Of a DNA stretch of 64,000 nt, positions 4,399 to 47,185 are shown one piece after another (the first letter of the stretch is position 1; every line of letters begins with the position of its first letter). The stretch lies in assembly GCA_030427255.1 (NCBI GenBank), contig JAUHWY010000001.1:48141-112140 (forward strand), read 5' to 3'. The notes beneath the pieces are model-generated. The model did no database searches and was not told where the DNA came from. It saw only the letters and a program-made list of their open reading frames with translations. The translations under genes and the position numbers were made by a program. Origin of the DNA: Bacteroidia bacterium. Lineage in GTDB: Bacteria > Bacteroidota > Bacteroidia > CAIKAF01.

Positions 4399-4558
4399 GG
4401 CCCTACGGGCTGCTTGCTCCAAGCTGTGTCGTAAGGCCCACAAAACACCAACGCAGGGCCGGGGCTTGCTGCGCGCCGCCGCGGCCCTGCGGGTGCTTTT
4501 GGGGCCTTTCTTCCACAGGCTTTCCACAGCATCCCTGGCCGACCCGGCCCGCAGGCCC
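4399..4558 (-). repeat. GC-rich intergenic element, copy A (reverse orientation relative to copy B)
   Basis: ~75% GC island in a ~46% GC background. Its reverse complement aligns with copies B and C (GGATGCxGTGGAAAGCC ... GCGCGCAGCAA core). It generates four spurious overlapping ORFs. Confidence 0.6.
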
Positions 4559-4634
4559 ATTTTAACCAATTTTTTGGAATTTTTGGGGTAACCCTTGCCT
4601 TTGCAAAACGTATATTTAACAAAACATTTTTGCG

Positions 4635-5042
4635 ATGATTCGACTCTTATCTTTTTTGGCCTTCCTTTCCTTCGCAGCAACAAGCTCAGCACAAATAGCT
4701 ATTGGACCAAAATTAAGCGCCGCTAGTTTTGAAGTGGATTTTGGAGAAATTAAAAAGGGCGAAAAGCACCACACTACATTTATCATCAAAAACACAGGAA
4801 ATCAACCTTTGCTCATCAAAGATGCCAAAGGTTCCTGCGATTGCACCGTGCCCAAATATCCCCAAAGCCCAATTCGCCCGGGAGGTACTGCAGAACTAGA
4901 AATTTCTTACGATGCTAAATCAGCCGGCCCATTCAATAAAACTGTAACACTCACAACCAACGAACAAGAAGGAAAAGATAGCTTCGGCAGTGTAATCTAT
5001 AAAAAGCACGAAATCGAAGTAAAAGGTATTGTTGTGGATTAA
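4635..5042 (+). CDS. DUF1573 domain lipoprotein (paralog)
   Basis: KGSCDCTVPKYPQSPIRPGG signature; same architecture as 3870-4334. Confidence 0.7.
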   Translation: MIRLLSFLAFLSFAATSSAQIAIGPKLSAASFEVDFGEIKKGEKHHTTFIIKNTGNQPLLIKDAKGSCDCTVPKYPQSPIRPGGTAELEISYDAKSAGPFNKTVTLTTNEQEGKDSFGSVIYKKHEIEVKGIVVD

Positions 5043-5065
5043 GGGTTTTTGGTTGCTCTTAATAT

Positions 5066-5097
5066 AAAAGCCTCTCAAATTTGAGAGGTTTTTTTTT
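5066..5097 (+). terminator. Rho-independent terminator
   Basis: CCTCTCAAATTTGAGAGG hairpin followed by T9. Confidence 0.6.
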
Positions 5098-5099
5098 AC

Positions 5100-5170
5100 C
5101 TATCGTGACTGTTGACGCGTTGTGTTTTCAAGACCTAGTCACTGACCGAAGCGTCAGGGCCTAGCGTTTG
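5100..5170. repeat. REP-like palindromic element (CCTGAC/GTCAGG family), single unit
   Basis: GTTGACGCGTTGTGTTTTCAAGAC...TGACCGAAGCGTCAGGG is near-identical to 31355-31400. Confidence 0.55.
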
Positions 5171-5470: not shown

Positions 5471-6259
5471 TTAATTTCCACCTCTGGAGGTAGGAGCAGT
5501 GTTGTTGGTGCCGTCTCCGGTGCGTCCGGTAGGTGCGGTGTTGTTAGAGCCATCACCAGTTCTTCCGGTAGGCTGACCGCCACGAGTGGTACCGCCCTCA
5601 TTGGTGCTTCTATCCACTTCAACATTTACATTGGGGGTGGGATCTACCACCTTAGGGGCTTTTGCTTTTCCTTTTTTGGCAGGAGGAGTCATAACTGCAT
5701 CTACCACGTGCAAAATGCCATTAGTGGCAGCAATGTCGGCTTCTACTACATTGGCTCCACCAACCATGGTGCTTCCTTCGGCCACTTTTACTTGGACTAC
5801 TTTTTCATCAAGAGCATCCAATTCGGTGTAGTTTGCTAAGTCACCGGCAGAAAGGCGGCCACTTACCACGTGATAGGTAAGGATATCGGTCAAGTCTTGA
5901 CGACGCTTTAAGTCGGTTTTAAGCGCTTCAAGCTCAGCAGCGTCAAGTGCGGCAAAAGCTTCATTGGTAGGGGCAAATACCGTAAAGTTCTTTGTGGTAT
6001 CGCTAAGGGTTTCTACCAAACCTGCAGCAGAAATCAATTCCACTAGGGTAGTGAAGCGCTCATCTTTCATAGCGGTTTCAACTACATTTACAGGAGCATT
6101 TGCAGCAGCAATGCTGTCTAAGCGGGCTTGCTCAACAGCAGCCAATGAATCTTGACGTGCTTTTTCAGCATCTGCATCAGATTTGCCTTTACCTCCACAA
6201 GAAGAAAGGGCTACCGCTGTGGCTAGGCCAAAAACGGCTAAAGTGTTGTGAATTGCCAT
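5471..6259 (-). CDS. Fasciclin (FAS1) domain lipoprotein with a Gly/Thr-rich C-terminal repeat tail
   Basis: Lipoprotein signal (ALSSCGG), FTVFAPTNEAF fasciclin motif, and a repeated GRTGDGxNNTAPT tail. Start moved to the internal Met. Confidence 0.8.
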   Translation of the reverse strand: MAIHNTLAVFGLATAVALSSCGGKGKSDADAEKARQDSLAAVEQARLDSIAAANAPVNVVETAMKDERFTTLVELISAAGLVETLSDTTKNFTVFAPTNEAFAALDAAELEALKTDLKRRQDLTDILTYHVVSGRLSAGDLANYTELDALDEKVVQVKVAEGSTMVGGANVVEADIAATNGILHVVDAVMTPPAKKGKAKAPKVVDPTPNVNVEVDRSTNEGGTTRGGQPTGRTGDGSNNTAPTGRTGDGTNNTAPTSRGGN

Positions 6260-13439: not shown

Positions 13440-13600
13440 GGAGCTTAAGCGCCCCGGATGCGGTGGAAAGCCCGGAGGACCGAAGTCTAGCTTTTGCAGG
13501 CGGAAAGGAGTGGCGCGCAGCAAACTCCCTTTCCGACAAGCAAAAGCAGACTGAGGGACGATGACTTGAAACCGGCAGCCGGAAAAGGCGCCCCAAAAAG
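13440..13600 (+). repeat. GC-rich intergenic element, copy B
   Basis: Aligns along its length with the reverse complement of copy C. Shared blocks are CCCCGGATGC, GGAAAGCCCGGAGG, GGAGTGGxGCGCAGCAAACTCCCT and GGCAGCCGGAAAAGGC. Confidence 0.6.
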
Positions 13601-13602: not shown

Positions 13603-13636
13603 AAAAAAAAAGCCTCCACTGGGGAGGCTTTTAAAA
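13603..13636. terminator. Bidirectional terminator hairpin (AGCCTCC-ACTGG-GGAGGCT flanked by A/T runs)
   Basis: Located 3' of the minus-strand gene 13652-14608. Confidence 0.55.
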
Positions 13637-13651: not shown

Positions 13652-14608
13652 TTAGTGAGCCACAGAAATTTTCTGGCGTCCAATGAGTTTGAAATCGGTC
13701 TGAACTACCAAAATGTACTGACCATTGCTCAAGTCTTGGAGGTCCATGCCCAGTTGATCGGCTTGGTTCCGTACTTCGCGCACGAGTTGACCATTGAGGT
13801 TGTAAAGACGCAAGCGTACGGGTTCGTTGATGTCTTGCACCTGCACCTGAATGCGGTCGGTAGCAGGATTGGGGAATACCTGAATGTTTGCATTTTGGGT
13901 TTCTTCAATGGAAGAGGTGAATTCAAAAGAAAGATCGTCCAAAGAAAGTGCAGAACCTACTTGTCCGGCGCTATTTTGGAGATTCACCAAATCGTAACCT
14001 GCACTGGAGGCCATAATGATGTTGATGGAATCGGGGGTGTTTTGGGAGGTGTAGTTGATGTCCACCGAAAATTGAGTCCACGCATTTTGTGCTGATGTAA
14101 TGACTAAGTTGCCGGTTCCAACCACCTCTTTGGTTTGGTTTAGGGCATCGTAGCGCGTTAGCTCCACAAAGAAGGCAGCAGAATCGCCGCTCACGGGGGC
14201 ATACTGGTAGTAGCCGGTCATGCGCTCAGGCCTTTGGGTGTAAGGACGTCCCAGGTAAATGGTTTGGTTGGCGATATCCACATCTCCGGTTCCCAAGTAC
14301 CCTGGAACAATAATAGCACCGGCCACATCATCGGTTACCACTTGAATAGAATAGGTGCCGTTGTAAGCATTTGCGGCGTCTAATCTAAATGCAGAGGGGG
14401 CGGTAAGAGGCGCATCCAAAATAGCGTTAAGGGTACGCAGGAAGTTTTGGGTACGGTCTTGGTTTGGTCCTAAGTCGTTGTAGGTTTGAGCACCACTGGT
14501 TTGGTAGCTGTTCCATTGCTCCATGTCGCCATTGGGCATAAGTGTTTGAGCGGTAAGCCCTAAGCTCAATACTAGAGAAGAAAAAGTAAAAATTGATTTC
14601 ATATCCAT
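13652..14608 (-). CDS. Secreted protein with a T9SS C-terminal sorting domain
   Basis: Signal peptide and a C-terminal ~80 aa ending ...YILVVQTDFKLIGRQKISVAH, typical of a Por secretion CTD. Confidence 0.7.
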   Translation of the reverse strand: MDMKSIFTFSSLVLSLGLTAQTLMPNGDMEQWNSYQTSGAQTYNDLGPNQDRTQNFLRTLNAILDAPLTAPSAFRLDAANAYNGTYSIQVVTDDVAGAIIVPGYLGTGDVDIANQTIYLGRPYTQRPERMTGYYQYAPVSGDSAAFFVELTRYDALNQTKEVVGTGNLVITSAQNAWTQFSVDINYTSQNTPDSINIIMASSAGYDLVNLQNSAGQVGSALSLDDLSFEFTSSIEETQNANIQVFPNPATDRIQVQVQDINEPVRLRLYNLNGQLVREVRNQADQLGMDLQDLSNGQYILVVQTDFKLIGRQKISVAH

Positions 14609-17473: not shown

Positions 17474-18943
17474 ATGCCTTCTCGAAGTATTGATTTTTTT
17501 TGGAATGGTTTGCGCCGGGCCTATAGGCTTGATGAATGGCGTGGTTTAGGTTTTCGTGATTTTCTTTCTTGGACAAAGCAAGGTTTAAGCGGCAAGGAAG
17601 ACGCAAAGGAGCTTACCCATGGATTGTTATGGAAGTCCGTGGTGCTACTTTCCATTCCCATGATGGCAGAAATGCTGATGGAGTCAGTATTTGCCGTAGT
17701 GGATATGTATTTTGTTTCTAAGCTTGGCGTACAAGAGCCGGCAATTGTTGGCATTACCGAATCGGTTTTAATGCTAATGTATTCTCTTGCCGTAGGTTTG
17801 TCGGTAGGACTTACGGCGATGATTAGCCGGAGGGTAGGTGAGGGGCGGTTTCGTCAAGCCGGGTTGACAGCTGTGCAGGGCCTTGCCTTATCGCTTGGAT
17901 TGAGTTTGGTTTTGGCCCTTCCGGGCATATGGTTTGCCGGCGATGTGTTGCGCCTGATGGGCGCAAACGCAGGATTGATTGAAAAGGGGGAGCGCTTTGC
18001 CGCTATTATGTACGGCGGCAACTTGTCCATTTTGTGGCTTTTTGCCTTAAATGCCATTTTCAGGGGCGCAGGCAATGCCAGTTTGGCCATGCGAACCCTC
18101 ATTTTGGCTAATGGGTTAAACCTGGTGCTGGATCCCCTTTTTATTTTTGGCCTTGGTTCATGGGAAGGTATGGGCTTGGAAGGCGCTGCTGTGGCCACCA
18201 ATATTGGAAGGTTTGTAGGGGTTGCTTATCAGTTGTATTATTTTTTGGGCGGCAAAAGCCGGGTGCGGGTTTTTAAGCATCAGCTGCGATTGAATGCTTT
18301 TCTGTTAAAGCGACTTGTTACGCTTTCATCCGGGGGGGTGGTTCAATTCCTTATAGAATCAGCCAGCTGGATGTTTTTAATTCGTGTTATGACAGGTTTT
18401 GGGGACGCGGCTCTTGCTGCATACACCATAGCCTTTCGAATTATTGTGTTTACTATTTTACCCGGCTGGGGATTGGCTAATGCAGCGGCTACCTTGGCGG
18501 GCCAAAATATTGGCGCCGGTTTTCCTCAAAGGGCTCGTGAGGCTGTCATGTTGTGTCTTAGATTAAATGTAGCCTTTTACGGCCTGCTTTCCCTTTTCCT
18601 TTGGTGGGCCTCTCCTTGGTTGGCGCAACAATTCAATCCGGATCCGGAGGTAGTTAAAACGGCTACCTTGGGCTTACGTGTAATTTCGTTGGGCTATATT
18701 TTCTTTTCGGCCGGAATGGTTTTTGGACAATCTCTAAATGGTGCCGGCGACACCAAATCTCCTATGTTCATTAATCTAATTGCTTTTTGGGCCATTCAAA
18801 TACCCTTGGCCTATGTTCTTGCCAACACTTTGGAATTGGGGCCTTTGGGTGTTTTTGCCTCCATTGCTTTTTGCCATTCTTTGTATGCGCTCATGGCCGG
18901 TTGGGTGTTTGGAAAGGGACGCTGGGCTAAGGTATTGGTCTAG
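17474..18943 (+). CDS. MATE family efflux transporter
   Basis: 12-TM pattern with two MatE repeats (LSIPMMAEMLMESVFAVVDMYFVSKLG...). Confidence 0.85.
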   Translation: MPSRSIDFFWNGLRRAYRLDEWRGLGFRDFLSWTKQGLSGKEDAKELTHGLLWKSVVLLSIPMMAEMLMESVFAVVDMYFVSKLGVQEPAIVGITESVLMLMYSLAVGLSVGLTAMISRRVGEGRFRQAGLTAVQGLALSLGLSLVLALPGIWFAGDVLRLMGANAGLIEKGERFAAIMYGGNLSILWLFALNAIFRGAGNASLAMRTLILANGLNLVLDPLFIFGLGSWEGMGLEGAAVATNIGRFVGVAYQLYYFLGGKSRVRVFKHQLRLNAFLLKRLVTLSSGGVVQFLIESASWMFLIRVMTGFGDAALAAYTIAFRIIVFTILPGWGLANAAATLAGQNIGAGFPQRAREAVMLCLRLNVAFYGLLSLFLWWASPWLAQQFNPDPEVVKTATLGLRVISLGYIFFSAGMVFGQSLNGAGDTKSPMFINLIAFWAIQIPLAYVLANTLELGPLGVFASIAFCHSLYALMAGWVFGKGRWAKVLV

Positions 18944-27180: not shown

Positions 27181-27185
27181 TGGGC

Positions 27186-32892: not shown

Positions 32893-32980
32893 GGTGAGGT
32901 GGGTGAGTGGCTTAAACCAGCAGTTTGCTAAACTGCCGTACTCGAACAGGGTACCGGGGGTTCGAATCCCCCCCTCACCG
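32893..32980 (+). tRNA. tRNA-Ser (anticodon GCT), class II with a long variable arm
   Basis: Acceptor GGTGAGG/CCTCACC, anticodon stem GCAGT/ACTGC with loop TTGCTAA, T-arm GGGGG-TTCGAAT-CCCCC, discriminator G. Confidence 0.7.
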
Positions 32981-32987
32981 CAGCACT

Positions 32988-33062
32988 CGGGGTGTAGCGT
33001 AGCCCGGTTATCGCGCCTGCTTTGGGAGCAGGAGGTCGCAAGTTCGAATCTTGCCACCCCGA
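32988..33062 (+). tRNA. tRNA-Pro (anticodon TGG)
   Basis: Acceptor CGGGGTG/CACCCCG, anticodon stem CCTGC/GCAGG with loop TTTGGGA, T-arm GCAAG-TTCGAAT-CTTGC. Confidence 0.85.
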
Positions 33063-33068
33063 CTTTTA

Positions 33069-33104
33069 CAAGGGTTGTGGTTTTACCATAACCCTTGTTT
33101 TTTT
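33069..33104 (+). terminator. Terminator-like hairpin between tRNA-Pro and tRNA-Arg
   Basis: CAAGGGTTGTGG-TTTT-CCATAACCCTTG followed by T7. Confidence 0.45.
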
Positions 33105-33111
33105 GAGCCAA

Positions 33112-33185
33112 GGTCCCATAGCTCAGCTGGATAGAGCAACTGCCTTCTAAGCAGTAGGTCTCAGGTTCGAATCCTGATGGGACTA
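33112..33185 (+). tRNA. tRNA-Arg (anticodon TCT)
   Basis: Acceptor GGTCCCA/TGGGACT, D-arm GCTC/GAGC, anticodon stem ACTGC/GCAGT with loop CTTCTAA, T-arm TCAGG-TTCGAAT-CCTGA. Confidence 0.9.
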
Positions 33186-33443
33186 CTTTTGTTTTCTGTA
33201 AATTGCTGATTTACAGGTATTGGGAAACTTGCCTTTCTGATTTGTAGACACATTTGTAGACACATTTTCGGGAATTGCTCCAATTTGCGCTACTTGCTGC
33301 CGGCTCGTGTTGCTCTTTTTTATGGTGTCGGTTTAGTTGGCTACCGGCATCCAATCGGTTTTCCCTTGTCGGGTGCATACTCGGTGCCGGTCGCTATTTC
33401 TCCCTACTTCTTCTGTAATGTAATCTTTATGGAGGTAGGCTAT

Positions 33444-34454
33444 TCAATTGCAAAGTCCTTTTATCATTTCGTAAGCATCAGCGAATCCTAGCTCTCCAGC
33501 TTTACTCCAGTCCCAACAAGCTCCGTTTTTGTCTCCGAGATTGTATTTTGAGACACCTCTGTTGAAATAAGCATCTTGATACCCAGGGTCTAGTTCTATA
33601 GCCTTGTTATAATCTGCTATTGCTCCTCTGGAGTCTTCGAGCCTCTCCTTTGCCGCACCTCTGTTGTGATAAGCTTCTTTATACCCAGGGTCTAGTTCTA
33701 TTGCCTTATTACAGTCTGAAATAGCTCCTCTATAGTCTCCGAGATTGTACTTTGACGCACCTCTGTTGTAATAAGCTTTTTTATACCCAGGGTCAAGTTC
33801 TATTGCCTTGTTATAATCTGCTATTGCTCCTTTATAATCTCCGAGGCTTTCCTTTGCCGTACCTCTCATGAAATAAGCGTTTTCATGCCCAGGGTCTAGC
33901 TCTATTGCCTTATTACCGTCTGAAATAGCTCCTCTATAGTCTCCGAGAGTGTACTTTGCTATACCTCTGCTGTAATAAGCGGCTACATAGGAAGGGTTTA
34001 GCTCTATAGCCTTGTTAAAGTCTGCTATTGCTCCTCTGGAGTCTCCAAGTTTGCCCTTTGCCCCACCTCTTATGAAATAAGCGTCTACATACAAAGGGGC
34101 ACGCTCTATTGCCTTATTACAGTCTGAAATAGCTCCTCTATAGTCTCCGAGATTGTACTTTGACGCACCTCTGTGTTCATAAGCTTCTAAATACCCAGGG
34201 TCTAGTTCTATAGCCTTGTTATAATCTGCTATTGCTCCTCTAAAGTCTTCAAGCCTCTCCTTTGCCCTACCTCTTATGAAATAAGCACCTTTATCCCCAG
34301 GGTCTAGTTCTATAGCCTTGTTAAAGTCTGCTATTGCTCCTCTATTGTCTCCGAGATTGTACTTTGCCAGACCTCTGTCAAGGTATTCTTCCGCAGTCTG
34401 ACTAAATACATTGCTACTCCAAAAAAGCAAAAAAATAAAAAATACGTTTTTCAT
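33444..34454 (-). CDS. Secreted TPR-repeat protein (nine near-identical 34-aa TPR units)
   Basis: Signal peptide and a repeated ...GAIADYNKAIELDPGY...AYFxRG... unit. The DNA is internally repetitive. Confidence 0.8.
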   Translation of the reverse strand: MKNVFFIFLLFWSSNVFSQTAEEYLDRGLAKYNLGDNRGAIADFNKAIELDPGDKGAYFIRGRAKERLEDFRGAIADYNKAIELDPGYLEAYEHRGASKYNLGDYRGAISDCNKAIERAPLYVDAYFIRGGAKGKLGDSRGAIADFNKAIELNPSYVAAYYSRGIAKYTLGDYRGAISDGNKAIELDPGHENAYFMRGTAKESLGDYKGAIADYNKAIELDPGYKKAYYNRGASKYNLGDYRGAISDCNKAIELDPGYKEAYHNRGAAKERLEDSRGAIADYNKAIELDPGYQDAYFNRGVSKYNLGDKNGACWDWSKAGELGFADAYEMIKGLCN

Positions 34455-34539
34455 TTTAGTTCGTTATTGGTTAAAAACTCCTTTAGGTTATTTGCAATAG
34501 GCAGTTCCGCTCAATTATTGATGCCATGTCGTTTACTTT

Positions 34540-34845
34540 TTATGGATTGGCTGCTTCTTGTTTGTGTACTTGAAAAACCACTTCCCCCGGCCATGTCTGC
34601 GTCGGGGTATTGTCGCTTTCGGCTGCCGGTGGGGGTGTTACTAAGACCAAAAGCTTAACCATGATTTCAAGGTATGCCTTGGGGTTCGTTTCTGCCAAGG
34701 TATTGAGGCTTGCCTCCATTTTTTCGCCTTGCCCCTGCAAAGCTTGGCCGATTAACTTTCGGGCTTGCTCGGTTAGCTTGTTGGGGACTCCTTTTCGGGT
34801 TCCGCTTTTTCCTGCCTTGGTTCCGGTGTCGGAGTTGAATTGCAC
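34540..34845 (-). CDS. Hypothetical protein (101 aa), island cargo
   Basis: ORF only; no motif. Confidence 0.3.
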   Translation of the reverse strand: MQFNSDTGTKAGKSGTRKGVPNKLTEQARKLIGQALQGQGEKMEASLNTLAETNPKAYLEIMVKLLVLVTPPPAAESDNTPTQTWPGEVVFQVHKQEAANP

Positions 34846-35021
34846 TTTCCGTTACTTTGGTTTGTGTGGGTGTACGTTACCGGGAATGGGTTGTTTCAAA
34901 ATAAATAGCCCAATGATTGACTTTTCCCCTCTACTTGAACGGTGAATAACGCTCATTCAATCTTTAGGCTTGGCCTGCCAAAAATAGGAAATTCCTAGAT
35001 TTAATTAAATGCTTTGGAGCT

Positions 35022-35453
35022 ATGGATAAATTAACAGACGATTGGGTTCAGCTTACAGACGGTCGGGAACCGATTTACTTTTACCTTGTCGAGGAACATG
35101 TTACTACCTTTGGAAAAGATGAGGGTAGGAATGAGCCCATTAGTTACGCTAAAGAATTTAATGGACCCAATTTGCGAAAGTGCAAAGAAGATGCAGAAGC
35201 ATACTATTGGGAAAGGTTAGAGGGCTTAGAAAAGGCCGGTTCCTACTTTTTGCCATTTGCAAGCCATTCAAATTTTGAGTTTGGCAAAAACGCTGCATTT
35301 TCTATTTATCTATCTTTAGTTGAGTACTATGATGAAGACGATTTTTTCCTTCACACTATTTTGGGGGATGATGAAGAGGAAATGGTCGAGGCTAGGGAAG
35401 CAGAAGCGTACATACTTAGCGAAAGGGAGGATGAAGAGGATGAAGAGTTCTAG
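35022..35453 (+). CDS. Highly acidic 143-aa protein with a poly-Asp/Glu C-terminal tail (ends EREDEEDEEF); the only plus-strand island gene
   Basis: ORF flanked by 22-bp direct repeats CGGTGAATAACGCTCATTCAAT (34940-34961 and 35515-35536). Confidence 0.5.
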   Translation: MDKLTDDWVQLTDGREPIYFYLVEEHVTTFGKDEGRNEPISYAKEFNGPNLRKCKEDAEAYYWERLEGLEKAGSYFLPFASHSNFEFGKNAAFSIYLSLVEYYDEDDFFLHTILGDDEEEMVEAREAEAYILSEREDEEDEEF

Positions 35454-35531
35454 CTTTTTTCTAAAATAGCACATAGGTAGGTCCGGTTTTTGGTTGTTTC
35501 CCCCCACTAGTAAGCGGTGAATAACGCTCAT

Positions 35532-36482
35532 TCAATAGCTCGAAGAGCTCGCCCAATGGTTGGCCATTTTCGCATCCTTTAGGCTTGGGAAACAAATCGC
35601 TCGGAGCTCGTTTCTTATTTCGTTTGATGTTTGCGCCCAATGCACTAAGCCGGCATCCTGCAAACGGTTGTTTAGCTTGGTGCGCTCCCTTCTGAATTGC
35701 TGTGGGTTTTCCCGTGAAAGGGAAATGAAATACCGGGGGTTGGTCCATTCTTTGTTCCATGTGGCCACCTCGGACCGGGCCTCTTTTTCTTGCGGCACAA
35801 ATAACACCTCGTTTAGGCTTTCCTCTATCTTATGCCTCAACTTAGATAAACGGCTCGGGTTGGCTAAGTCGGCAAAGGTTGAAATACCCATTTGGTTTAG
35901 TTGTCTCATTTTGGAATAATGCCTTTCCCATCGAATGAGCTTTTCCGGGTCCGTATTTTGCACCTCCATCGCTGTTTCTATTTCCTTGGTGTACTGCCTA
36001 CCTTTTGCGTAAAGCTTGTCTCCAAACTCGCTTTTGGTGGCCACTACTCCAAACTTCCGATCGCTTAACATCGCCTCAAATGGTGTGGATTTATGGAGGA
36101 ACGCTCCTTTCAAGATTTCTTGGGCCCTGTGGCTTGTCCGCACGTTCGCCCCTGCTTCTAAGTTCTCTAATTGGATTTCGTGCGGTGAAACGCCCAAATG
36201 GTCGGAAATGGAAATGAGGCCTTCCAAAAGTTGTCGAAAATCCAAGGGCTTCCAGTTCGCCCCACCTTGTTGGTGCTTATGTATGGAGCCGGAAAGGATT
36301 ATTCTTGTGGGGCTGCCGGCAGCAGGGAAAAAGCCCTTGGCCTTCATGGAGCCAAAATAATACTCCTGCCAAGGGCTTATTTCGCCTGTGCGCTCATTCA
36401 CCACCATTTGCCATTCTATGGCCTCGCTTGCTTCTTTAGGAAACGCTAGGGGGTGAATACTAGCTTTTAGAAAGTCTATCAC
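35532..36482 (-). CDS. Putative replication initiation protein, Rep_trans-like (weak)
   Basis: 316 aa; the segment GDKLYAKGRQYTKE...LIRWERHYSK loosely resembles the RIYNKKQE...HLWRVEIELK region of rolling-circle Rep_trans initiators. Context is int/xis/regulator. Confidence 0.35.
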   Translation of the reverse strand: MIDFLKASIHPLAFPKEASEAIEWQMVVNERTGEISPWQEYYFGSMKAKGFFPAAGSPTRIILSGSIHKHQQGGANWKPLDFRQLLEGLISISDHLGVSPHEIQLENLEAGANVRTSHRAQEILKGAFLHKSTPFEAMLSDRKFGVVATKSEFGDKLYAKGRQYTKEIETAMEVQNTDPEKLIRWERHYSKMRQLNQMGISTFADLANPSRLSKLRHKIEESLNEVLFVPQEKEARSEVATWNKEWTNPRYFISLSRENPQQFRRERTKLNNRLQDAGLVHWAQTSNEIRNELRAICFPSLKDAKMANHWASSSSY

Positions 36483-36514
36483 TATCTTTGATTGCTAGTC
36501 GGTTCAAACGGCTA

Positions 36515-36874
36515 TCAAATTGCACCGAAGAGGCCCATTTGTTGGGCCTTTTCTTTTTTATGGCCGTAGTGCTCAACCGGCAAACCGGTTTCTCGCTCCG
36601 TGTCGATTTTGTTCTCTACACGAACAAGCCCTTCTTTTTTGAGCTTGTTTAGGACGCTGCATAAAGAGGACTCTCTAATTTTGAGAACTTCTTGCAATTT
36701 TAACCTTGAAAACGTGGCTTCCGGGAAAGTCCCTAGGAATTGCAAAATTCTCTCTTTATGCTTTAGGTGCGCAAGCTCTCTCGCATAGGTACGGTAAGCT
36801 TCTAGGGAGTTCCGGTGCATCCTGTGGTTTGGGTGCTTAATTCCCCTACCTAGGGTTTGGTTATCGCTCTTCAT
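36515..36874 (-). CDS. Winged-helix DNA-binding transcriptional regulator (119 aa)
   Basis: wHTH-like segment ...RILQFLGTFPEATFSRLKLQEVLKIRESSLCSVLNKLKKEGLVRV...; 4-nt overlap with the xis-like gene. Confidence 0.5.
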   Translation of the reverse strand: MKSDNQTLGRGIKHPNHRMHRNSLEAYRTYARELAHLKHKERILQFLGTFPEATFSRLKLQEVLKIRESSLCSVLNKLKKEGLVRVENKIDTERETGLPVEHYGHKKEKAQQMGLFGAI

Positions 36875-37140
36875 CGCTTGGCCCTCCCTTTTAATTGTTG
36901 TTCAATCTCGGAGCGCAAGAATAGGACCCTTTTCCCCATCCGGTAGCCTTTAATTACTCCCTGCTTTTCCAGTTTGTTAATGGTCGGGAAACTGATTTTG
37001 AATTGTGCCCGGACTTGGTCCCGGGTCAACCACTTTTCAGTTTGTTGGCCGCTTTCGCTTTGGCCTTGTTCTTTGATGTGCTCGTGAATTTCGAGAACGG
37101 CGTTCTCAATAACTCGCAAACGGTTTTCTAGGTTTTGCAT
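36871..37140 (-). CDS. xis: Excisionase/MerR-type HTH DNA-binding protein (Xis-like)
   Basis: LTRDQVRAQFKISFPTINKLEKQGVIKGYRMGKRVLFLRSEI matches the excisionase HTH_17 pattern. Confidence 0.6.
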   Translation of the reverse strand: MQNLENRLRVIENAVLEIHEHIKEQGQSESGQQTEKWLTRDQVRAQFKISFPTINKLEKQGVIKGYRMGKRVLFLRSEIEQQLKGRAKR

Positions 37141-37184
37141 AATTTAAAAATTGATTTAATGCAAAGCTATTACCGCTCAAAGTC

Positions 37185-37237
37185 AGAAACTTAGGAAACT
37201 TAGGGAGGAAAACTTAGGAAACTTAGGAAACTTAGGT
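37185..37237. repeat. Five tandem iteron-like 9-10-bp repeats, (G)AAACTTAGG
   Basis: Seen directly; located between the orf315 stop and the xis start. Confidence 0.65.
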
Positions 37238-37247
37238 TTTGTTTTAT

Positions 37248-38195
37248 TTAGCTAGATAATAGATTGTTTATCTTTATCAAATAGCCCTTATTTTTCTTTA
37301 GTGGTGAAGTTTCTAGTTTTCGCAAAAGTCTAATAACGGTTCTCTCCGTTACGCCCTTACCGCCACCCTCGTAGTTTATTAAATACTCGCCTATTCTGTC
37401 TAAAGCTGCATTATCTTTAACTAAGTCAGAAACTATACCTGCATTACTCTTAATTCCGTCCAATTTTTTAAGGCCTGTTTTCTCTGTCATAAAATCATAC
37501 CCATTCAATTTCAATTCATTTTTGAAATCATAACCAGTAATCCCACAGAACAAAATGCAAAGGTTTTCCTTGCTCCGGCCGCCCCTCAACCATTCAAAAA
37601 ACTTTTCCCATAATCCATCATTTGATTGAGTTTCCGGCTTAGAATCTTCCCTTCCTTCTTTGTCGGGGTCAACCTCATTTGGTCTAGGTACAACTTCCTT
37701 GGGTTCATTATCGGGGGTCCACCTACTAATTGTTATGCCTTGGTCACTACTATTCAAACTATTTTGTAATTCAAAGAATTGCTCCCATTGGTATTGTTGA
37801 CCAAAGCCAAGGGTTTTCTCTAATTCTTTGAGCCTAGCATGGAATAGTTCAAAGTCAACCGCCCTATCATGGCTCCCAAAAAAACTAATGTACTTTTGGG
37901 CCCAATCCTTTTGCCTTTGAATGGCTTTTTGTACCAGTCTCAACCCTTTTTCATTATTGTTTCCATACTTCCCAATTGTGGCCTCTATTTCCTCTCCAAG
38001 CTTCCTTTGCTTTTCGATTATTTCAGCCTCCCAATCGGTGTTCTTATAAATGGGGAGTATCATTTCTTGCCACCAATCTTTGTTGACCCTAGCCACTTTA
38101 AACGGAGCCCGGGTCGGTTTATAATCCTCGGGGTTTAATAGAATGGTCCAACCTTTAGGGGGCCTTTTTAATTTTAACGGTTCCTTCCTTTTCAT
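37248..38195 (-). CDS. Hypothetical island protein (315 aa), translationally coupled to the integrase
   Basis: 4-nt overlap with the int stop; no recognisable domain. Confidence 0.5.
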   Translation of the reverse strand: MKRKEPLKLKRPPKGWTILLNPEDYKPTRAPFKVARVNKDWWQEMILPIYKNTDWEAEIIEKQRKLGEEIEATIGKYGNNNEKGLRLVQKAIQRQKDWAQKYISFFGSHDRAVDFELFHARLKELEKTLGFGQQYQWEQFFELQNSLNSSDQGITISRWTPDNEPKEVVPRPNEVDPDKEGREDSKPETQSNDGLWEKFFEWLRGGRSKENLCILFCGITGYDFKNELKLNGYDFMTEKTGLKKLDGIKSNAGIVSDLVKDNAALDRIGEYLINYEGGGKGVTERTVIRLLRKLETSPLKKNKGYLIKINNLLSS

Positions 38196-39487
38196 ACCTG
38201 TGCGCTTAATTCCTTGTACTTCTCTTCAAAAGTCGCAAGTATCATTTCGCTATGCTCCCTAGTGGTCATTTTGATGTAATTAAGAAACACCTTCTCCGAA
38301 CTGTGCCCGGTTATGGCCATAATACTAATGGCCGGCACTCCCATTTTGTATAAGTTGGTGGCAAAGGATCTCCTAGCTGTATGGGAACTGATAAAGTGAA
38401 ACTTAGGCCTTTTTATTTCCTCAACTTCAAAGCCTCTATTCTTGGTTGCCTCTACAGTTTCTACAATACCGGCAAGCTTCCCAATTTCCTTTATAAGGCT
38501 GTTTAGGCTTTGGTCAGGCATGTATGGCAATTCAAAGTCGTACTTTTCTAGGATTTTCTTGGTAGGTGAAAACAACGGAATTTCCACTTCGCTATCGGTC
38601 TTTTGCGCCTTTATTACTATAAACTTACTGTCTATGATGTGCTTTTTCTTAACTCGCTTAAAGTCGGAAATGCGTAAACCAGTCCAACAACCAAAAAGGA
38701 AAAGGTCCCGGGCTTTCTCGTATCTTGGCAAATGCGAAAGATTGAGGCCTTCCAGTTTCTTTAATTCATCCAAGGAAAGAAACACGCTATGAACCTTCTC
38801 CTTTATTACCTTGAACTTTTTGTCTTTGAAAATTTCGTTCTTTGAAATTCCCTCTTCGTATGCTGCTCGAAGTATTGCCTTAATGTTTTTGATGTGTTTC
38901 CCTATGTTATTTGGAGTAAACCTTTTCCCGGTGTCCCTGCCTAGTCTATCCCTGCCTTTACAATAAGCTACAAAAGAGGCGTACCAAGCCATGTCGAAGT
39001 CCTCAAAACCAATGTTCGGTTGATACTCTTCTAAAAGCTTTTTCGTTTGCTGATAAGAGTTCACAACCGAATTTTGACTTAATGGCTTGCCGGCAGCACT
39101 AAGCCTTAGTTTGTGCCCTTCCATGAAATGGTCCACAAATGCAAAAAAGCTCTTGGGCGCAAGCTTTGATCCGGGTGCTTGTTCTTGTTTTTTAGGGTTT
39201 AGGAGCTCTCTAAACTCGTCAAGGGTTGGCTCTATGCCTAATTGCCCAAAGGGCTTGTAAAGTTCGGCTATTGCTTCCTTATAAGCTTCTAATCGCTCGT
39301 TTTTGTAAAATGCGTCAGGGTCGCTCCTTCTTACCTTTTGCTGTTTCTCGTTCCAGTCCTTTACCAAAACGGACTCTCCTACATTCTTGGTAAGCTTTTT
39401 ATAATCCCAACGAATTACGGCTTGTATTGACGCTTCATCGCCCTTGGTTCTGGGCCTCAAATAAAAGTGCACGGTCATAACTATCAA
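38192..39487 (-). CDS. int: Tyrosine-type site-specific recombinase/integrase
   Basis: C-terminal catalytic region ...HTARRSFATNLYKMGVPAISIMAITGHSSEKVFLNYIK... (R..H..R..Y) and an N-terminal SAM-like domain. Confidence 0.9.
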   Translation of the reverse strand: MIVMTVHFYLRPRTKGDEASIQAVIRWDYKKLTKNVGESVLVKDWNEKQQKVRRSDPDAFYKNERLEAYKEAIAELYKPFGQLGIEPTLDEFRELLNPKKQEQAPGSKLAPKSFFAFVDHFMEGHKLRLSAAGKPLSQNSVVNSYQQTKKLLEEYQPNIGFEDFDMAWYASFVAYCKGRDRLGRDTGKRFTPNNIGKHIKNIKAILRAAYEEGISKNEIFKDKKFKVIKEKVHSVFLSLDELKKLEGLNLSHLPRYEKARDLFLFGCWTGLRISDFKRVKKKHIIDSKFIVIKAQKTDSEVEIPLFSPTKKILEKYDFELPYMPDQSLNSLIKEIGKLAGIVETVEATKNRGFEVEEIKRPKFHFISSHTARRSFATNLYKMGVPAISIMAITGHSSEKVFLNYIKMTTREHSEMILATFEEKYKELSAQV

Positions 39488-39904
39488 ATTGCATAGCTAA
39501 GTTAGCACATTTGAAATTTGTGGACACATTTGTGGACATATTTTCTTTATTTCATTTTACTTTAAAGAGTCTTACTTAATCGATAATCCACTAATTACAA
39601 GGGGTGCAAAACTAAAAGGCCTTTATTCTCAATCCTTTTAAAATTGAAAATACGAATCCTGATGGGATCACTAAGAAAGTCCACCGAAAGCCTTTAATGT
39701 TCCAAACCTTGGGAACTAGAGCATGCTTGCATGTTCATAGTTCCTAAGGTTTGGAACGATTTGTTGCCAAAGGCAGCAAATGGGCTTTCGGAATTCGGAG
39801 CATACAGGATCAGGCACAACTCCTGATGAGAATAGAGCGGTCGGGATTTTGGAAAGTAGCCGCAATCTCTCCCTCATTTCAAAAAGACTTAGAGAATTTT
39901 AAAT

Positions 39905-40080
39905 TAAAAGCCCGCAGCGTATGCCATCTTATTAGAATGGCCCCCCTGCCCGGCGGAGGGGCCGCTGCCACCAAAGCCCGCAGGGGCAGGACTGAGGAGG
40001 CCCCCCTCAGTTATGGGGGGGACCCCGCAAGCCTTGCCCCTGCGTGGCTTTGGTGGTAGCGCACCGGAGTATGGGCAGGA
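39905..40080. repeat. GC-rich intergenic element, copy D (divergent; long imperfect hairpin)
   Basis: CTGCCACCAAAGCCCGCAGGGGCAGG pairs with CCTTGCCCCTGCGTGGCTTTGGTGG. It is ~70% GC and shares AAAGCCCGxAGG-type blocks with copies A-C. Confidence 0.4.
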
Positions 40081-40154: not shown

Positions 40155-41846
40155 TTAAGGACAAACTCTAGTAATCTGAATCGATCCGTGGCCTGTGTTC
40201 CAGGAATTTAGGTTTTGAATGCTTCCATTAAAGGAGGACGATCCATTGTATTGTCCGTTGGAAGTAGCCACGTTGGAAGCACCGGAAGCAACAAAAGAGC
40301 CGCCGCCACCGCCGCCGCCGCCGTTGGAGCCGCCACCGCCGCCGCTGTATCCGCCGCCGCCGGCACCTCCGGTGGAGCTGCAGCCACCGGCTCCGCCAAA
40401 GCCTCCTACGGCTTGTGAACCGGGTCCTCCTTGACTTCCATTTACATAGGCTTTTCCAAAGAAGTTATCCGAGCCGTAATTGTACACGGTATTGCCATCG
40501 GTCTGATAGCCCCCGGCGCCGCCTCCGCGGGTGCCGTTGCCGCCACCATTTCCGGAACTACCGCCCCACATGCCTTGGTTGTAGCCGTAATCGGACCAAA
40601 CATTGTTGTTGTCGTTGCAAGTATTGTACCCGTTATTGCCCCTTATTAGCGTGGTGCCATCGCTTCGGCAACCGTTTTGGGCAGAACGACCATCTCCGCC
40701 GCCGCCGCCGGCCACAATAATGGGCTGGCCATTGCTCACCACATAGCTGCCACCGCCGCCGCTTCCGTTATTGTCCACTCCGGTGGCTCCCTGTTGGCCT
40801 ACTACCATTTGCAGGTTTTGACCGGCACTAAGACTAAAATCTGCGGCCAAAACTACACCTCGACCGGGATTAGCACCTCCGCCGGAGGCGCCGCGCACGG
40901 TAATTCGATACACCCCACTGCTGGGAACGGACCAAGTTTGGATGCCATTATTTACAGTGACTACACCGCTTCCATAGCTGCTGTTGCATTGGCTTTGGCT
41001 GGGGCCGTTTTGGCCGCTTGCGCCGCAGGGGGTAAAGCTTTGGTTCACCGCAATGCAAGAAGTTACCTGAACCATGGAGTCCAAGGTGCTGGAACAGCCA
41101 TCGGCGTCGGTAATGGTTAAACTTGCCTGATAGGTGCCTGTATTGGAATAGCTCACCGAGGGGCTTTGCAGGTTGGAGGAAGCCGGAGTACCGTTTTGAA
41201 AGGTCCAAGCATAGGTAGCTCCATTTTGGATGGCACTAAAGGTGGAAGGAGCCTGAGTGCTTATAGGATAAGGGCTAATGGTGTAACTGGAGTCGGGATT
41301 GCTAACATCTACCAACAAAGAGGCGGTTGATGAGCTTCCACAGGCATTTACTGCCACCACCTGAAGGGTTCGCTGGCCTTCGACGCCTGAAAAATTAACC
41401 GTTATGGAGTTAGATCCCTGACCGCTAACCAAGGTGTCTTGTCCGGGAATGGTCCACTGATACGAAGTAGCCCCTTGAACCGGAGCTACAGAAAAGCTTT
41501 TGTTGGCATCGGCGCGGCAAACGTGGCTTTGGCCTTGGATGGAGGAAGGCGTAGGAGGCGGGTTTTGGCAATCGCATACGATGGCTTTCCAACCGGTGGA
41601 AAAATAGGCCTCAATGCAGTCGGTATCGGTATTGTAAATTTGTAGTCCAAAGGGAGGCGTTGGAAGTGCGTTTCTTTGCTGGGTGTTCAATCTTGAAAGT
41701 AGAAATCCACCTTGGGTTGATTGCAGGTCAAGCACTGCGGCCGAGTCGGGTGCCTGATTGGATCCAATGGTTACTCCCTGGGCCATGCCGGAAATGGAGG
41801 AAAAAAGAACGAAAGAAAAAATACAAATACGTAGTGAGTAGTTCAT
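40155..41846 (-). CDS. Secreted protein with Ig/PKD-like repeats and a C-terminal glycine-rich domain
   Basis: Signal peptide and long GGGGxGG runs in the last ~250 aa. Assignment to the Gly-rich domain family that also occurs in ALK/LTK is from memory. Confidence 0.55.
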   Translation of the reverse strand: MNYSLRICIFSFVLFSSISGMAQGVTIGSNQAPDSAAVLDLQSTQGGFLLSRLNTQQRNALPTPPFGLQIYNTDTDCIEAYFSTGWKAIVCDCQNPPPTPSSIQGQSHVCRADANKSFSVAPVQGATSYQWTIPGQDTLVSGQGSNSITVNFSGVEGQRTLQVVAVNACGSSSTASLLVDVSNPDSSYTISPYPISTQAPSTFSAIQNGATYAWTFQNGTPASSNLQSPSVSYSNTGTYQASLTITDADGCSSTLDSMVQVTSCIAVNQSFTPCGASGQNGPSQSQCNSSYGSGVVTVNNGIQTWSVPSSGVYRITVRGASGGGANPGRGVVLAADFSLSAGQNLQMVVGQQGATGVDNNGSGGGGSYVVSNGQPIIVAGGGGGDGRSAQNGCRSDGTTLIRGNNGYNTCNDNNNVWSDYGYNQGMWGGSSGNGGGNGTRGGGAGGYQTDGNTVYNYGSDNFFGKAYVNGSQGGPGSQAVGGFGGAGGCSSTGGAGGGGYSGGGGGSNGGGGGGGGSFVASGASNVATSNGQYNGSSSFNGSIQNLNSWNTGHGSIQITRVCP

Positions 41847-44665: not shown

Positions 44666-44670
44666 ATCAA

Positions 44671-46848
44671 TTAGTGTAGAAATGGATGTAGTAGTCCCAA
44701 GGATTTCAAATTTGCCGGACTATCGTCCGCAAAAACCTTACCGTCTTTAAGTATGATGATTCGGTCGCATTTTTCTGCAAAGGCCAAATCACGCGATACT
44801 GCCAAAAGGGTGGTTTCGGGCATTTTTTTAACCAATAGGTTTGTAAGTGCTTCTTGTTCTTCGGCATCAAGCGTACCCAAAAACTCATCCAACAGCAGCA
44901 GTTTCGGGTTTTCGACCAAACAACGCGCAAGGTTGATTTTTTGAATCATGGTAGAAGATAAGCCCTTTTTTTCGGGTATCAATAGCGTATCAAAGCCATT
45001 TTTAAGGTTTTGAATGATAGGCGTTAAACCCACTAAGTCTGCTGCTTTGGCAACTTCGGTAAAGCCTACGAAGGGCCTTCCCAAGCTTATATTTTCTAAG
45101 ACTGTGCCGTAGAAAACATCGTTTTCCAAAAAGTTCTCTCCAATTAGGGTATGCACATCTAAAGCATCCAGGTTTTCTAATGGAATTCCTTCCATAATCA
45201 CTTTCCCGGAGGCCGGTTTGTGTAGGCCGGTTACTATAGAAAGAATGGTAGATTTCCCACTGCCTTCTAAGCCGGTAATGCACACTTTTTCTCCTCGGTT
45301 CAACTTAAAACTTACTCCATTCAACACCGGTGTTCCACACAAACTGCTGTTGAATTTAATGTCGCGCACCTCTACCGCCATGCCCTCCTTACCTATAAGT
45401 CCGGTGAGTCTACGGCCCGATTGAATTTCCAGAGGATAGTCGGTAAAAAGCCCTAGTTTTTCGGTGCCTGTCAATACTTCGTAAATGCTTTCTAAGCCTT
45501 GAATAATTTTTTCTACCGAGTTAATAATCAAAATGATTACAATTTCTCCGGCCACAAATTGTCCAATGTTGATCTGCTGGTCTACCACCAAGGAACCACC
45601 AAGAATCAACAGTCCGGCGGTAATCAGCATCTTAAACATGACTACATACCAGTTTTGACTAATGATTACCCGGAATTTTTTGCGACGGAAATGGATGTAG
45701 TCTCCAACCAATTTATCCGTCTTTTCCAAAGGAAGACTGCTGTTGCCTGTTAGTTTAAACAAGTTCAAGTTTCGTCCAATTTCTTCGAGCCAATGCGCCG
45801 TTTTGTACTTGTAGGTCGACTCCTTTAAGCTTGCGGCCATGGCTTTAGGACTGGTGACTCTAAAAATGATATACAAAATCAACGAAAGAAAAATCCCAAA
45901 AAACACAAAAGTCCAGTGATAAAAGGCCAGCAATATCATTCCAAACAAAATTTGCAAGCCGGCACCTGTAAGCTCAATAAGTAATTTAGGAAGTCCTTTT
46001 TGTACGGTTAGAATATCAAAAAATCGATTCACCAATTCCGGTGTATACTGATCTTCTAGTTTATCCAAGCGCATGCGCGGAATGCGCCAGGCAAATTCAA
46101 AACTAGCCCGGGCAAACAAACGCTGTTGCATGGCTTCCACAATCCACAGCTGCATAATTTGCAAGCCGCCGGTAATTAGTACCCCCAGAAGCACCAAGCT
46201 AATGAGCAACACCAAGGAGGTCGATATTTGCGCTCCCATCAACAGCGAAATAATCGCCTGAATCCCCAAGGGCAGGCTCAAAGTGGCCAATCCATGCAAT
46301 AAGGCATAAACGTAAAGAAGTATCACCTCCTTACGCTCTTGGTGCATCATTCTAAAAAAGCGCCGAATGGGCTTAGATGTAAGGTCTTGCTTGGAGTCTC
46401 CCAATTCAGCAAACAAAGGCTCCATGGGCGCATAGAGCAAAATAGGGAAGCGGCCGTTTTCTTGATAAAAATCCTCTACCGGAAGCGCCGTGCACTCATA
46501 ACTATGACTTTTCAGCTCTTCTCCCCGTTCAAAATTGGCAATTACATAGCCTTTTTTCTTGCGCTCTACCCAAATAAATCCCTCTCGATTTTTGGAATAA
46601 AACACCACAGGGTAGTCGGGAAGATCGCACAAGGAGTGCAGCTGTTCCGTAGATGAAACCGACTCTTTTAAAGCAAGTCTTGAAAGGGCAGCGGCGTTCC
46701 TTAATACGTCCAAAGTATCTTCCAAAGCAACCCTTTCCTCGTCAGGATGGTCGTTCCAAAAATCAACCAATTCGGGTTGAACCTCCTTGTCTTTGCCAAA
46801 AAATGCCGCTGCACGTTCTGACAACAGGCGTAACTGGATGCTTTTCAT
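44671..46848 (-). CDS. Type-I-secretion-type ABC exporter (N-terminal C39-like domain without an obvious catalytic Cys, 6-TM domain, NBD)
   Basis: Walker A GLEGSGKSTILS and signature LSSTMIQKINLAR; ~725 aa like the HlyB/bacteriocin exporter class. Confidence 0.85.
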   Translation of the reverse strand: MKSIQLRLLSERAAAFFGKDKEVQPELVDFWNDHPDEERVALEDTLDVLRNAAALSRLALKESVSSTEQLHSLCDLPDYPVVFYSKNREGFIWVERKKKGYVIANFERGEELKSHSYECTALPVEDFYQENGRFPILLYAPMEPLFAELGDSKQDLTSKPIRRFFRMMHQERKEVILLYVYALLHGLATLSLPLGIQAIISLLMGAQISTSLVLLISLVLLGVLITGGLQIMQLWIVEAMQQRLFARASFEFAWRIPRMRLDKLEDQYTPELVNRFFDILTVQKGLPKLLIELTGAGLQILFGMILLAFYHWTFVFFGIFLSLILYIIFRVTSPKAMAASLKESTYKYKTAHWLEEIGRNLNLFKLTGNSSLPLEKTDKLVGDYIHFRRKKFRVIISQNWYVVMFKMLITAGLLILGGSLVVDQQINIGQFVAGEIVIILIINSVEKIIQGLESIYEVLTGTEKLGLFTDYPLEIQSGRRLTGLIGKEGMAVEVRDIKFNSSLCGTPVLNGVSFKLNRGEKVCITGLEGSGKSTILSIVTGLHKPASGKVIMEGIPLENLDALDVHTLIGENFLENDVFYGTVLENISLGRPFVGFTEVAKAADLVGLTPIIQNLKNGFDTLLIPEKKGLSSTMIQKINLARCLVENPKLLLLDEFLGTLDAEEQEALTNLLVKKMPETTLLAVSRDLAFAEKCDRIIILKDGKVFADDSPANLKSLGLLHPFLH

Positions 46849-47034
46849 GATGTCTGCGCTCTGTGTTCAAACCCCCGTTACACGCATTTGTTCACGGAAC
46901 CTCAAACCGAGTGCAAAAGTACGGAGAAGCCAAACCATTGCAAAATGTTGATTTTGGCCCATATCTGGAGAGTCCAACCCATCAAATTTCCATTTTTTGT
47001 GCCTTTGCCGATTCGGGCCCTTAGCTCTTAAACT

Positions 47035-47185
47035 ATGGGTCTTTCAAATCCGGCCCCGGTTCCGGACTCCCTCGCTTTGCCCAAGCGCCGGGGGCCTCCG
47101 GTGGTTCCGCAAAGCTACACCTCCTCGGCCTCCCGGCGCTAGGGCGCAGCTTCGGGCGGTCCTCCTCCCGGCCGGGGGGCCATTC
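47035..47185 (+). repeat. GC-rich intergenic element, copy E
   Basis: 5' end CTTTCAAATCCGGCCCCGG matches the reverse complement of the copy C terminus. GCAAAGC/GCGCAGC blocks present. Confidence 0.5.

Follow-up and report, generated by a model that had tools for sequence, protein, structure and literature searches.

The closest described counterparts of the elements reported here are the ERIC/IRU sequences of the Enterobacteriaceae, imperfect palindromes of ~130 to 150 bp that lie in intergenic DNA at gene boundaries in either orientation, fold into a long RNA stem-loop and keep orthologous sites between species (PMC3184786). Their copy number is modest to high, and what is known of their function concerns mRNA fate alone; both ERIC and REP elements influence mRNA stability (PMC3184786). 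REP/BIME elements and REPINs are extragenic, GC-rich and hairpin forming, combine conserved outer parts with a variable, compensated spacer, produce no target duplication and often sit just downstream of genes or terminators (PMC3116915). A further group, bcr1 of the Bacillus cereus group and the Correia elements (CREE) of Neisseria, spans ~100 to 160 bp, folds into long double-stranded RNA and is transcribed together with neighboring genes. Structured noncoding RNA genes, for their part, have reportedly been found as islands of high GC content in intergenic regions (GC-IGR), by Klein et al. in 2002 and in later screens from the Breaker laboratory. Here we describe structured elements with likenesses to each of these groups in a 64,000-nucleotide stretch of DNA (below, the window; 46.2% GC) from an uncultured genus of Flavobacteriales (GenBank assembly GCA_030427255.1, contig JAUHWY010000001.1, positions 48,141 to 112,140). 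The window carries six GC-rich hairpin rods, about one per 10 kb, and our leading, still tentative reading is that they belong to an old, lineage-restricted and rarely spreading structured intergenic repeat of the ERIC/REP kind, whose hairpin is retained and acts in transcripts that span gene boundaries.

Three of the rods, copies A (positions 4396 to 4544, minus strand), B (13446 to 13593, plus strand) and C (23864 to 24012, minus strand), can be aligned across ~150 nt and form the core of family 1, with 68 to 72% identity between B and C and 49 to 56% between A and either of them. A covariance model, R1, derived from the A, B and C copies of three lineages (148 positions, 46 pairs), scores the three copies at 112 to 158 bits (A, 111.9 bits, E = 4e-22; B, 157.8 bits; C, 152.4 bits), and a pattern combining their shared blocks matches the window three times, at exactly A, B and C, against 0.00 matches expected. 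R1 also recovers, over the full length of the model, a divergent fourth member, copy F (59835 to 59979, plus strand; 48.8 bits, E = 1e-8), with a minimum free energy (MFE) of -72.7 kcal/mol. The original prediction, made from the letters of the window, had proposed a family of five copies; it overlooked F, and two of its five, rods D and E, are not members by R1 or by alignment. Rod D (39934 to 40076, strand not assigned) is a GC-rich hairpin of ~145 nt with an MFE of -107 kcal/mol to which R1 gives 12 to 14 bits on both strands, the score of any long hairpin. Rod E (47040 to 47186, strand not assigned) is a similar GC-rich hairpin of ~145 nt (MFE, -83 kcal/mol) with no R1 match on either strand at E ≤ 10, so the proposed alignability of A, B, C and E holds for the homologous A, B and C but not for E. 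One end of D (AGAATGGCCCCCC...) is like E and F, and the ends of E on the minus strand (GGCCCCCCGG ... CCGGAACCGGGGCC) are like those of F and D; D and E have a 26-nt end in common, as an inverted match, and nothing further. Given the R1 scores and the sharing of this end alone, D and E form separate rod families, perhaps distant relatives of family 1, and are not copies of it.

That the five predicted islands are intergenic and exceptional in composition and structure was borne out. When the whole window was folded in 160-nt segments (mean MFE, -39.4 kcal/mol; standard deviation, 9.2), the five intervals folded at -70 to -112 kcal/mol and a sixth site, at 59801 to 60020, at -73 kcal/mol. Apart from a REP-like array at 31321 to 31660, the six rods are the strongest-folding segments of the window; a tRNA cluster also folds strongly, and weaker folders lie at 5501 to 5660, 27121 to 27300 and 29581 to 29740. 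The GC content had been put at 70 to 75%, which is too high: we measured 59% for B, 67% for C, 69% for A, 67% for D and 71% for E, with peaks of 0.69 to 0.77 in 100-nt windows for A, C, D and E. Some of the predicted sequence motifs also needed trimming. The four shared blocks are exact in B and C, but A has only shorter cores of them (GGATGC, GGAAAGCC, GCGCAGCAA and GCAGCC); similarly, the loop motif thought to be common to A, B and C is present in all three as the 9-mer GCGCAGCAA, but as the 11-mer GCGCGCAGCAA in A and B only. The stem differences quoted between copies are exact.

A conserved hairpin with a central stem had been predicted, and the hairpin is real, but the entire ~150 nt of each element forms one imperfect rod of ~70 bp, with MFEs of -70 to -99 kcal/mol (-87 to -98 kcal/mol for copy A, where an additional outer stem extends to ~4562). 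The rod starts with a closing helix of ~5 bp and an A/U-rich bulge of 3 to 5 nt that is invariably on the 3' strand, followed by a CCGG/CCGG helix, an A-G mismatch and a UGC/GCA helix. Next come a 3x3 loop of purines (GGA/GAA), an AAG/CUU helix and several GA/GA loops, and the top consists of two long variable helices and an apical loop with GCGCAGCAA. Conservation is concentrated in the rod base (the closing helix, the one-sided A/U-rich bulge and a CCGG or GGG helix), in the purine-rich internal loop, where GGAAAGCC faces CUUGAA, and, within family 1, in the apical loop. The long stems between these parts vary in sequence and keep their pairing.

This maintenance of pairing can be quantified. 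Aligning 11 sequences with MAFFT, with no fitting to the structure, gives 90.1% standard pairs among the pair cells and two-sided changes at 19 of the 46 pairs; in a model-fitted alignment that includes F, the values are 93.8% and 29 of 46. None of 500 shuffles matched the observed pairing in either alignment, and slid controls were 29 to 43% paired; these figures come from few independent lineages and from a structure derived from the same sequences. The original prediction took covariation in the stem as a sign of selection on structure, and both the shuffles and the compensated substitutions between orthologues in three lineages, described next, agree with it.

The relatives that we retrieved for the host genus fall into three groups. 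One contig (L179) does not differ from the window at B and C. A second lineage, GCA_018401695.1 ("Flavobacteriales bacterium M30B58"; L042, L180, L181 and L186), is ~89% identical to the window, and a third, comprising GCA_964545365.1 and ENA/Logan contigs (L169 to L178, L187 and L188), is ~87% identical. Copies A, B and C and rod D occupy the same sites in all three species-level lineages (87 to 89% identity), and R1 detected no additional copy over the ~37 kb searched in each relative. Between the M30B58 lineage and the window the elements are 94.9% identical, compared with 84.7% for other aligned spacer DNA and 90.2% for coding DNA; for the third lineage the corresponding values are 93.7%, 88.8% and 88.0%. 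By locus, identity between orthologues is 94% for A (L186 and L187), 95% for B (L042/L186 and L187/L169; 89% across the surrounding 8 kb), 93 to 96% for C in the three lineages and 92 to 94% for rod D (L169/L170). Variable paired positions are mostly compensated. Seven pairs are fully compensated between orthologues: four in A (G:C to C:G twice, A:T to C:G and G:C to T:A), one in B (T:A to C:G) and two in C (C:G to G:C, and a mismatch repaired to A:T), and several G-U intermediates occur among the orthologues. The slower evolution in place and the compensated substitutions show purifying selection for pairing on every fixed copy, and the high GC content of the elements is held against the 46% GC composition of the genome.

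Rods of related design occur outside the host genus, at loci that differ between genera. In a sister genus, whose RNase Z is 55% identical to that of the window and whose local gene order is kept, the rnz leader of 106 to 115 nt contains no element. Two GC-rich rods, which we call family S, lie instead at other spacers, IPPT-CMAS and OTCace-STAS (L183, 3100 to 3253 and 8266 to 8420; L189, 3120 to 3273 and 8240 to 8394; L191, 1 to 91). They are reverse-complement paralogues of each other, with conserved ends and apex (GCGACCTTGGGAGC). Between two species whose coding DNA is 73 to 75% identical, their stems are almost wholly rewritten and still paired: 20 of 48 pairs are compensated among four sequences, and the flanking spacers cannot be aligned. 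In L189, the paralogue matches as closely as the positional orthologue does, a hint of gene conversion or replacement. A covariance model of family S, R2, matched the window at F (29 bits), A (23), C (15) and B (10.5), every time on the strand chosen by R1 and never on the opposite one. In L194, which represents a third lineage at genus level and whose RNase Z is 50% identical, there are two full-length rods and, 700 nt away from a full-length one, a "mini" copy reduced to 66 nt by internal deletion (2970 to 3035, plus strand). R1 matches all three (28.7 to 40.9 bits) and R2 the two full-length rods (30.8 to 38.9 bits). The mini copy is made of the basal module alone (GGCCTGGGA..GCGGAAAGCC..GGACTTGAAGC..GGCCCAGTGCCGCC) and so retains GCGGAAAGCC and GGACTTGAAGC, which suggests that the rod base is the functional or recognized core. 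It is also the base that is common to the genera, with 5' GGCC(A/T)GGGA... and 3' ...CCCGG-bulge-GCCGCC. A 21-kb locus of Cryomorpha ignava contains no rods.

The genes around family 1 copies differ, and so does orientation, as had been predicted: A and B are antisense and C and F sense to their neighbors. Copy A lies between two plus-strand DUF1573 genes, and the T-tract of the upstream one's intrinsic terminator (4367 to 4391, plus strand; an 11-bp stem followed by a T-run) leads directly into its end. Copy B lies between a PCMD/T9SS gene (13652 to 14608, minus strand) and the start of znuA (minus strand, ~13353), antisense to both, and here too the T-tract of the upstream gene's intrinsic terminator (13608 to 13632, minus strand; a 10-bp stem, then a T-run) leads into the end of the copy. 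Island 1 of the sister genus likewise adjoins a terminator T-tract. Copy C ends ~6 to 10 nt before the ATG (23857 to 23859) of rnz, the gene for RNase Z, with the model ending at 23864 and the closing stem at ~23868. Copy F is found between an RDD-family gene (59260 to 59820, plus strand) and msrA (ATG at 60022, plus strand). The proposed promoter-proximal placement is true only in a loose sense: A and B follow directly on terminators and point away from the downstream gene, C ends just short of the rnz ATG, and F has co-oriented genes on both sides. Scans for Bacteroidetes-type (TTG / TAnnTTTG) and sigma-70 promoters found no motif at a consistent position, and a terminator scan of the family strand found none after any copy; B has a weak sigma-70-like site 34 nt upstream.

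The original prediction offered a structured noncoding RNA or a structured mobile element, to be told apart by covariation or by target-site duplications. The choice is too simple. The hairpin is kept by compensatory change, but covariation alone cannot separate the two, because the hairpins of REPINs (PMC3116915) and of bcr1 (PMC3184786) also change in a compensatory manner. Constraint in place, conserved asymmetric loops and turnover of the stems together argue for a function that depends on a folded single strand. A dispersed repeat is favored over a set of small-RNA genes by the abundance of rods, at about one in 10 kb, the several sequence families, the occurrence in either orientation, the genus-specific loci, the 66-nt deletion derivative, the terminator-adjacent placement and the lack of a consistent promoter or terminator. 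We propose that spread is rare and occurs by a process resembling transposition or duplication, that insertion favors the T-tract after terminators without duplicating the target, and that fixed copies are retained because the hairpin acts in transcripts crossing gene boundaries. Its most likely role would be that of a very stable RNA duplex serving as a block to exonucleases, a site for processing or an insulator between transcription units, for which REP and ERIC in enterobacteria provide the precedent.

The parallels with known repeats have clear bounds. The likeness to ERIC is a functional analogy only, drawn by comparing descriptions, with apparently no sequence similarity to the 127-bp enterobacterial consensus; host phylum and GC content differ. 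Unlike ERIC, the present elements are far GC-richer than their genome, lack a flanking TA or target duplication, have paralogues that are 49 to 72% identical and belong to Flavobacteriales. REPINs consist of two near-identical inverted REPs of 20 to 25 nt and form large, near-identical populations served by one RAYT gene (PMC3116915), whereas the elements described here have highly diverged copies, no RAYT in sight and asymmetric arms, with 5' CCGGATGC..GGAAAGCC against 3' CTTGAA..GCAGCCGG. The bcr1 and Correia elements have terminal inverted repeats and direct repeats of 2 to 5 bp and vary in distribution between close strains, in contrast to the absence of direct repeats and of site polymorphism across our three lineages. 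The element ends do pair (e.g., GCGCCCCGG ... CCGG-AAAA-GGCGC), and similar ends recur in A to F and in the rods of other genera, but terminal inverted repeats discriminate poorly for a MITE (a miniature transposable element with inverted repeats) because the whole element is a palindrome. Like the GC-island noncoding RNA genes, our elements are spacer GC islands with covariation; those screens mostly yielded single-copy RNAs with defined promoters and terminators, and ours have no match in Rfam 15.

Several observations weigh against a repeat that has been mobile and acts at the RNA level. As to mobility, no direct repeats flank A, B, C, D, E or F; no presence/absence polymorphism of A, B, C or D was seen across the three lineages; no transposase or RAYT was found among the Pfam-scanned proteins of the window or in the gene tables of the retrieved loci, where the only recombinase is the tyrosine integrase of an unrelated island; and an identity of 49 to 72% between paralogues is far beyond the divergence typical of MITE or REPIN populations. 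Two short sequences shared with rnz leaders gave no trace of insertion: CCAAACA after C belongs to the ancestral rnz leader, present in the sister genus as CAAACCATG, and CCGGAAAA, apparently shared with one sister-genus rnz leader, is taken as a coincidence, being missing in two other species. As to copy number, a pattern scan of genome contigs returned 52 loci, the sole real one being the B orthologue in L042, and scans of metagenome and viral contigs gave no real match with patterns too strict even for the known M30B58 copies; these scans say nothing about copy number, since A and C of M30B58 read GAAAAGC, not GGAAAGC. As to action, copies A and B lie past efficient-looking terminators and antisense to flanking genes, so read-through RNA would carry the complement of the family orientation. 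The strand itself gives mixed signals. The Watson-Crick share of pair cells is 88%, and both strands therefore fold almost equally well; folding of the family strand gives the lower MFE for each of the 11 sequences. Counts of G-U against A-C pairs are ambiguous, at 7 versus 1 for pairs predicted from both strands and 7 versus 13 once pairs predicted from the reverse strand only are added. The MFE and G-U/A-C tests do not settle which strand acts, or whether it does so as RNA or as single-stranded DNA, and action at the RNA level is inferred.

The main rival to an ERIC/REP-like repeat is a paralogous family of independently transcribed, trans-acting, rod-shaped small RNAs of ~150 nt, which would bind to a protein or a target through the conserved apical loop and the purine-rich internal loops; we consider it rather unlikely, if still a serious contender. 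The strong covariation, the conserved unpaired motifs and the slower evolution than the flanks would all be expected of such genes, as would an asymmetric bulge and loops kept across three genera, strand-specific matches between families and the consistently lower MFE of the family strand. The divergence of A and B from the downstream gene is a common arrangement of small-RNA genes, and the weak sigma-70-like site upstream of B is a further point in favor. However, no promoter is consistently placed, no family-strand terminator follows any copy and the strand signal is ambiguous. Copy C, so near the rnz ATG, and F, between co-oriented genes, would both be parts of mRNAs, and the density of rods, the several families and the 66-nt derivative are atypical of small-RNA genes. 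A bolder version, which we think unlikely, is that the rods form a new class of abundant rod-shaped structured RNAs in a Flavobacteriales clade of at least three genera, active rather than passive repeats. Under that reading the basal module (the closing helix, the A/U-rich bulge and the GGAAAGCC / CUUGAAGC purine-rich loop) would be a platform for a protein or RNase, and the rods would be trans-acting RNAs or a genome-wide system for marking transcript boundaries.

An improbable alternative is that the rods are purely selfish hairpin transposons (MITE, REPIN or IS200/IS605 derived) with no function for the host, their hairpin being kept for an enzyme that acts in trans on single-stranded DNA, or by template-switch repair restoring complementarity inside a quasi-palindrome. 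Like REPINs, the elements are imperfect palindromes in which the ends are conserved and the variable interiors compensated, and the absence of target duplications and the position of copies next to T-tracts fit insertion of the Y1-transposase type, 3' of a short target. Loci that differ between genera, the existence of a deletion derivative and the one sister-genus species with a paralogue that matches as closely as the positional orthologue does are also in keeping with selfish spread. Yet none of four loci is polymorphic across the three species-level lineages, and fixed copies evolve about half as fast as other spacer DNA, unlike a neutral fossil. Template-switch repair would erase the internal loops and the one-sided bulge, both of which are kept from genus to genus; paralogues at 49 to 72% identity speak against a recent burst; and the 64-kb window and the retrieved loci contain no Y1 transposase, RAYT or other transposase. 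That the rods are DNA-level sites at gene boundaries, cruciform forming or bound by protein (nucleoid, gyrase or recombination), is very improbable: near-equal folding of both strands at 88% Watson-Crick pair cells, the ambiguous strand test, copies in either orientation and the known binding of gyrase and IHF by REP/BIME elements would suit such sites, but a double-stranded site needs neither asymmetric bulges and loops nor strand-specific similarity between families, extrusion of a mismatched, GC-rich 70-bp cruciform is energetically unlikely without strong supercoiling, and stem turnover through G-U intermediates is more typical of RNA.

No Rfam family accounts for the rods. Rfam 15, run over the window, gave no match at A, B, C or F at either the gathering score or E ≤ 10; rod D attracted only miRNA-precursor noise (29 to 32 bits against a cutoff of 97), and neither the sister-genus rods nor those of L194 were matched. 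Signal recognition particle RNA, 6S RNA, Y RNA, RNase P, tmRNA and riboswitches were rejected for want of any Rfam signal, and retron and omega/bridge RNAs for want of an associated gene. GGAAAGCCCGG bears a likeness to the CR-I motif of RNase P, GGAAAGUCCGGGC. No described family in Rfam or in the literature searched matches the elements, and the superfamily is probably previously undescribed.

The elements also mislead gene prediction, as the original prediction had anticipated when it spoke of phantom open reading frames and false N-terminal extensions. Public gene calls place "proteins" of 78 to 80 aa over B and an extended RNase Z of 354 aa over C, with a false N-terminal extension of 47 residues. 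Although the frame is open in several copies, it is interrupted by stop codons in B of the window and in copy C of L169, L170 and L175; these, along with the compensatory stem substitutions, rule out a small protein. A profile of the phantom peptides searched against 5.8 billion proteins found only three orthologous calls over B. The joined six-frame translations of A, B and C (a 1,019-aa query) gave no match, in a search whose candidates were probably swamped by low-complexity proteins, and exact look-up of the window's 154-aa protein and of P0128 returned no record. Two Logan contigs (L171 and L179), from independent short-read assemblies of different lineages, end at one and the same position, the hairpin apex inside B. 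These breaks were rejected as evidence of repetition, since shared exact stretches are shorter than 31 nt and a dropout of coverage at the hairpin is the likelier cause; they suggest that rods cause coverage dropouts or graph breaks in short-read assemblies.

To our knowledge, few interspersed structured repeats have been described and few small RNAs characterized in Bacteroidota, and we know of no Hfq/ProQ-type paradigm in that phylum. The rods offer unusually clean evidence of selection on pairing, with stems rewritten at fixed loci and loops kept. In practice they create phantom proteins and a false RNase Z extension in annotations, and they break short-read contigs. Should the hairpins set mRNA ends or bind a dedicated protein, they would provide a handle on posttranscriptional control in Bacteroidota; should they be REPIN-like replicators, they would extend the REPIN phenomenon to Flavobacteriales.

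Several other features of the window were noted. A second, unrelated family of REP-like palindromes, CCTGAC-N6-GTCAGG, has 13 units against 0.06 expected, at 5093 to 5159, 29598 to 29819, 31334 to 31669, 51800 to 52011 and 56573 to 56800, in both orientations, partly as 27-nt tandem arrays and with a common flank (TTTTCAAGAC...); this family may be REP/BIME-like. Within 29621 to 29732, a 14-nt unit (TAGGTACTGAGGCT) is tandemly repeated ~8 times in a 1-kb spacer upstream of a CMAS-like methyltransferase gene, and this spacer aligns only partly with those of relatives. The strong fold at 27121 to 27300 (-67 kcal/mol, 48% GC) lies in the spacer upstream of pyrR-pyrB (26577 to 27125, minus strand), where Rfam gave weak leader-like noise; it may be a PyrR-type attenuator.

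A segment of ~6.4 kb (33186 to 39545) beside a cluster of three tRNAs (32893 to 33185) is missing in L169/L170, in which position 33182 is fused to 39653. Direct repeats of 30 nt (ATTTGTrGACACATTTGTrGACAyATTTTC, at 33240 and 39516) bound the segment, which has a tyrosine integrase gene at its end (38192 to 39487, minus strand) and carries the gene for a TPR protein of 102-nt repeats together with several genes without Pfam domains. The segment resembles an integrative island that has entered at a tRNA. Between its right repeat and rod D, positions 39689 to 39775 (plus strand) match the Rfam Clostridiales-1 RNA below threshold (35.6 bits, with the gathering score at 48; E = 4e-4) and are 94% conserved in L169/L170. 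On the other side of rod D, a coding GC island that could be confused with the rods lies at 40239 to 40802, inside an open reading frame (40155 to 41846, minus strand) for a PKD/PTL-type surface protein; it reaches 82% GC and consists of GCC/GCCGCC repeats that read as Gly-rich on the minus strand. Finally, a MatE efflux gene (17474 to 18943) is present in the window, L179 and M30B58 (L180/L186) and absent from the L169/L170/L187 lineage, as a clean gene-sized indel between the TonB-receptor and DUF1295-side genes.

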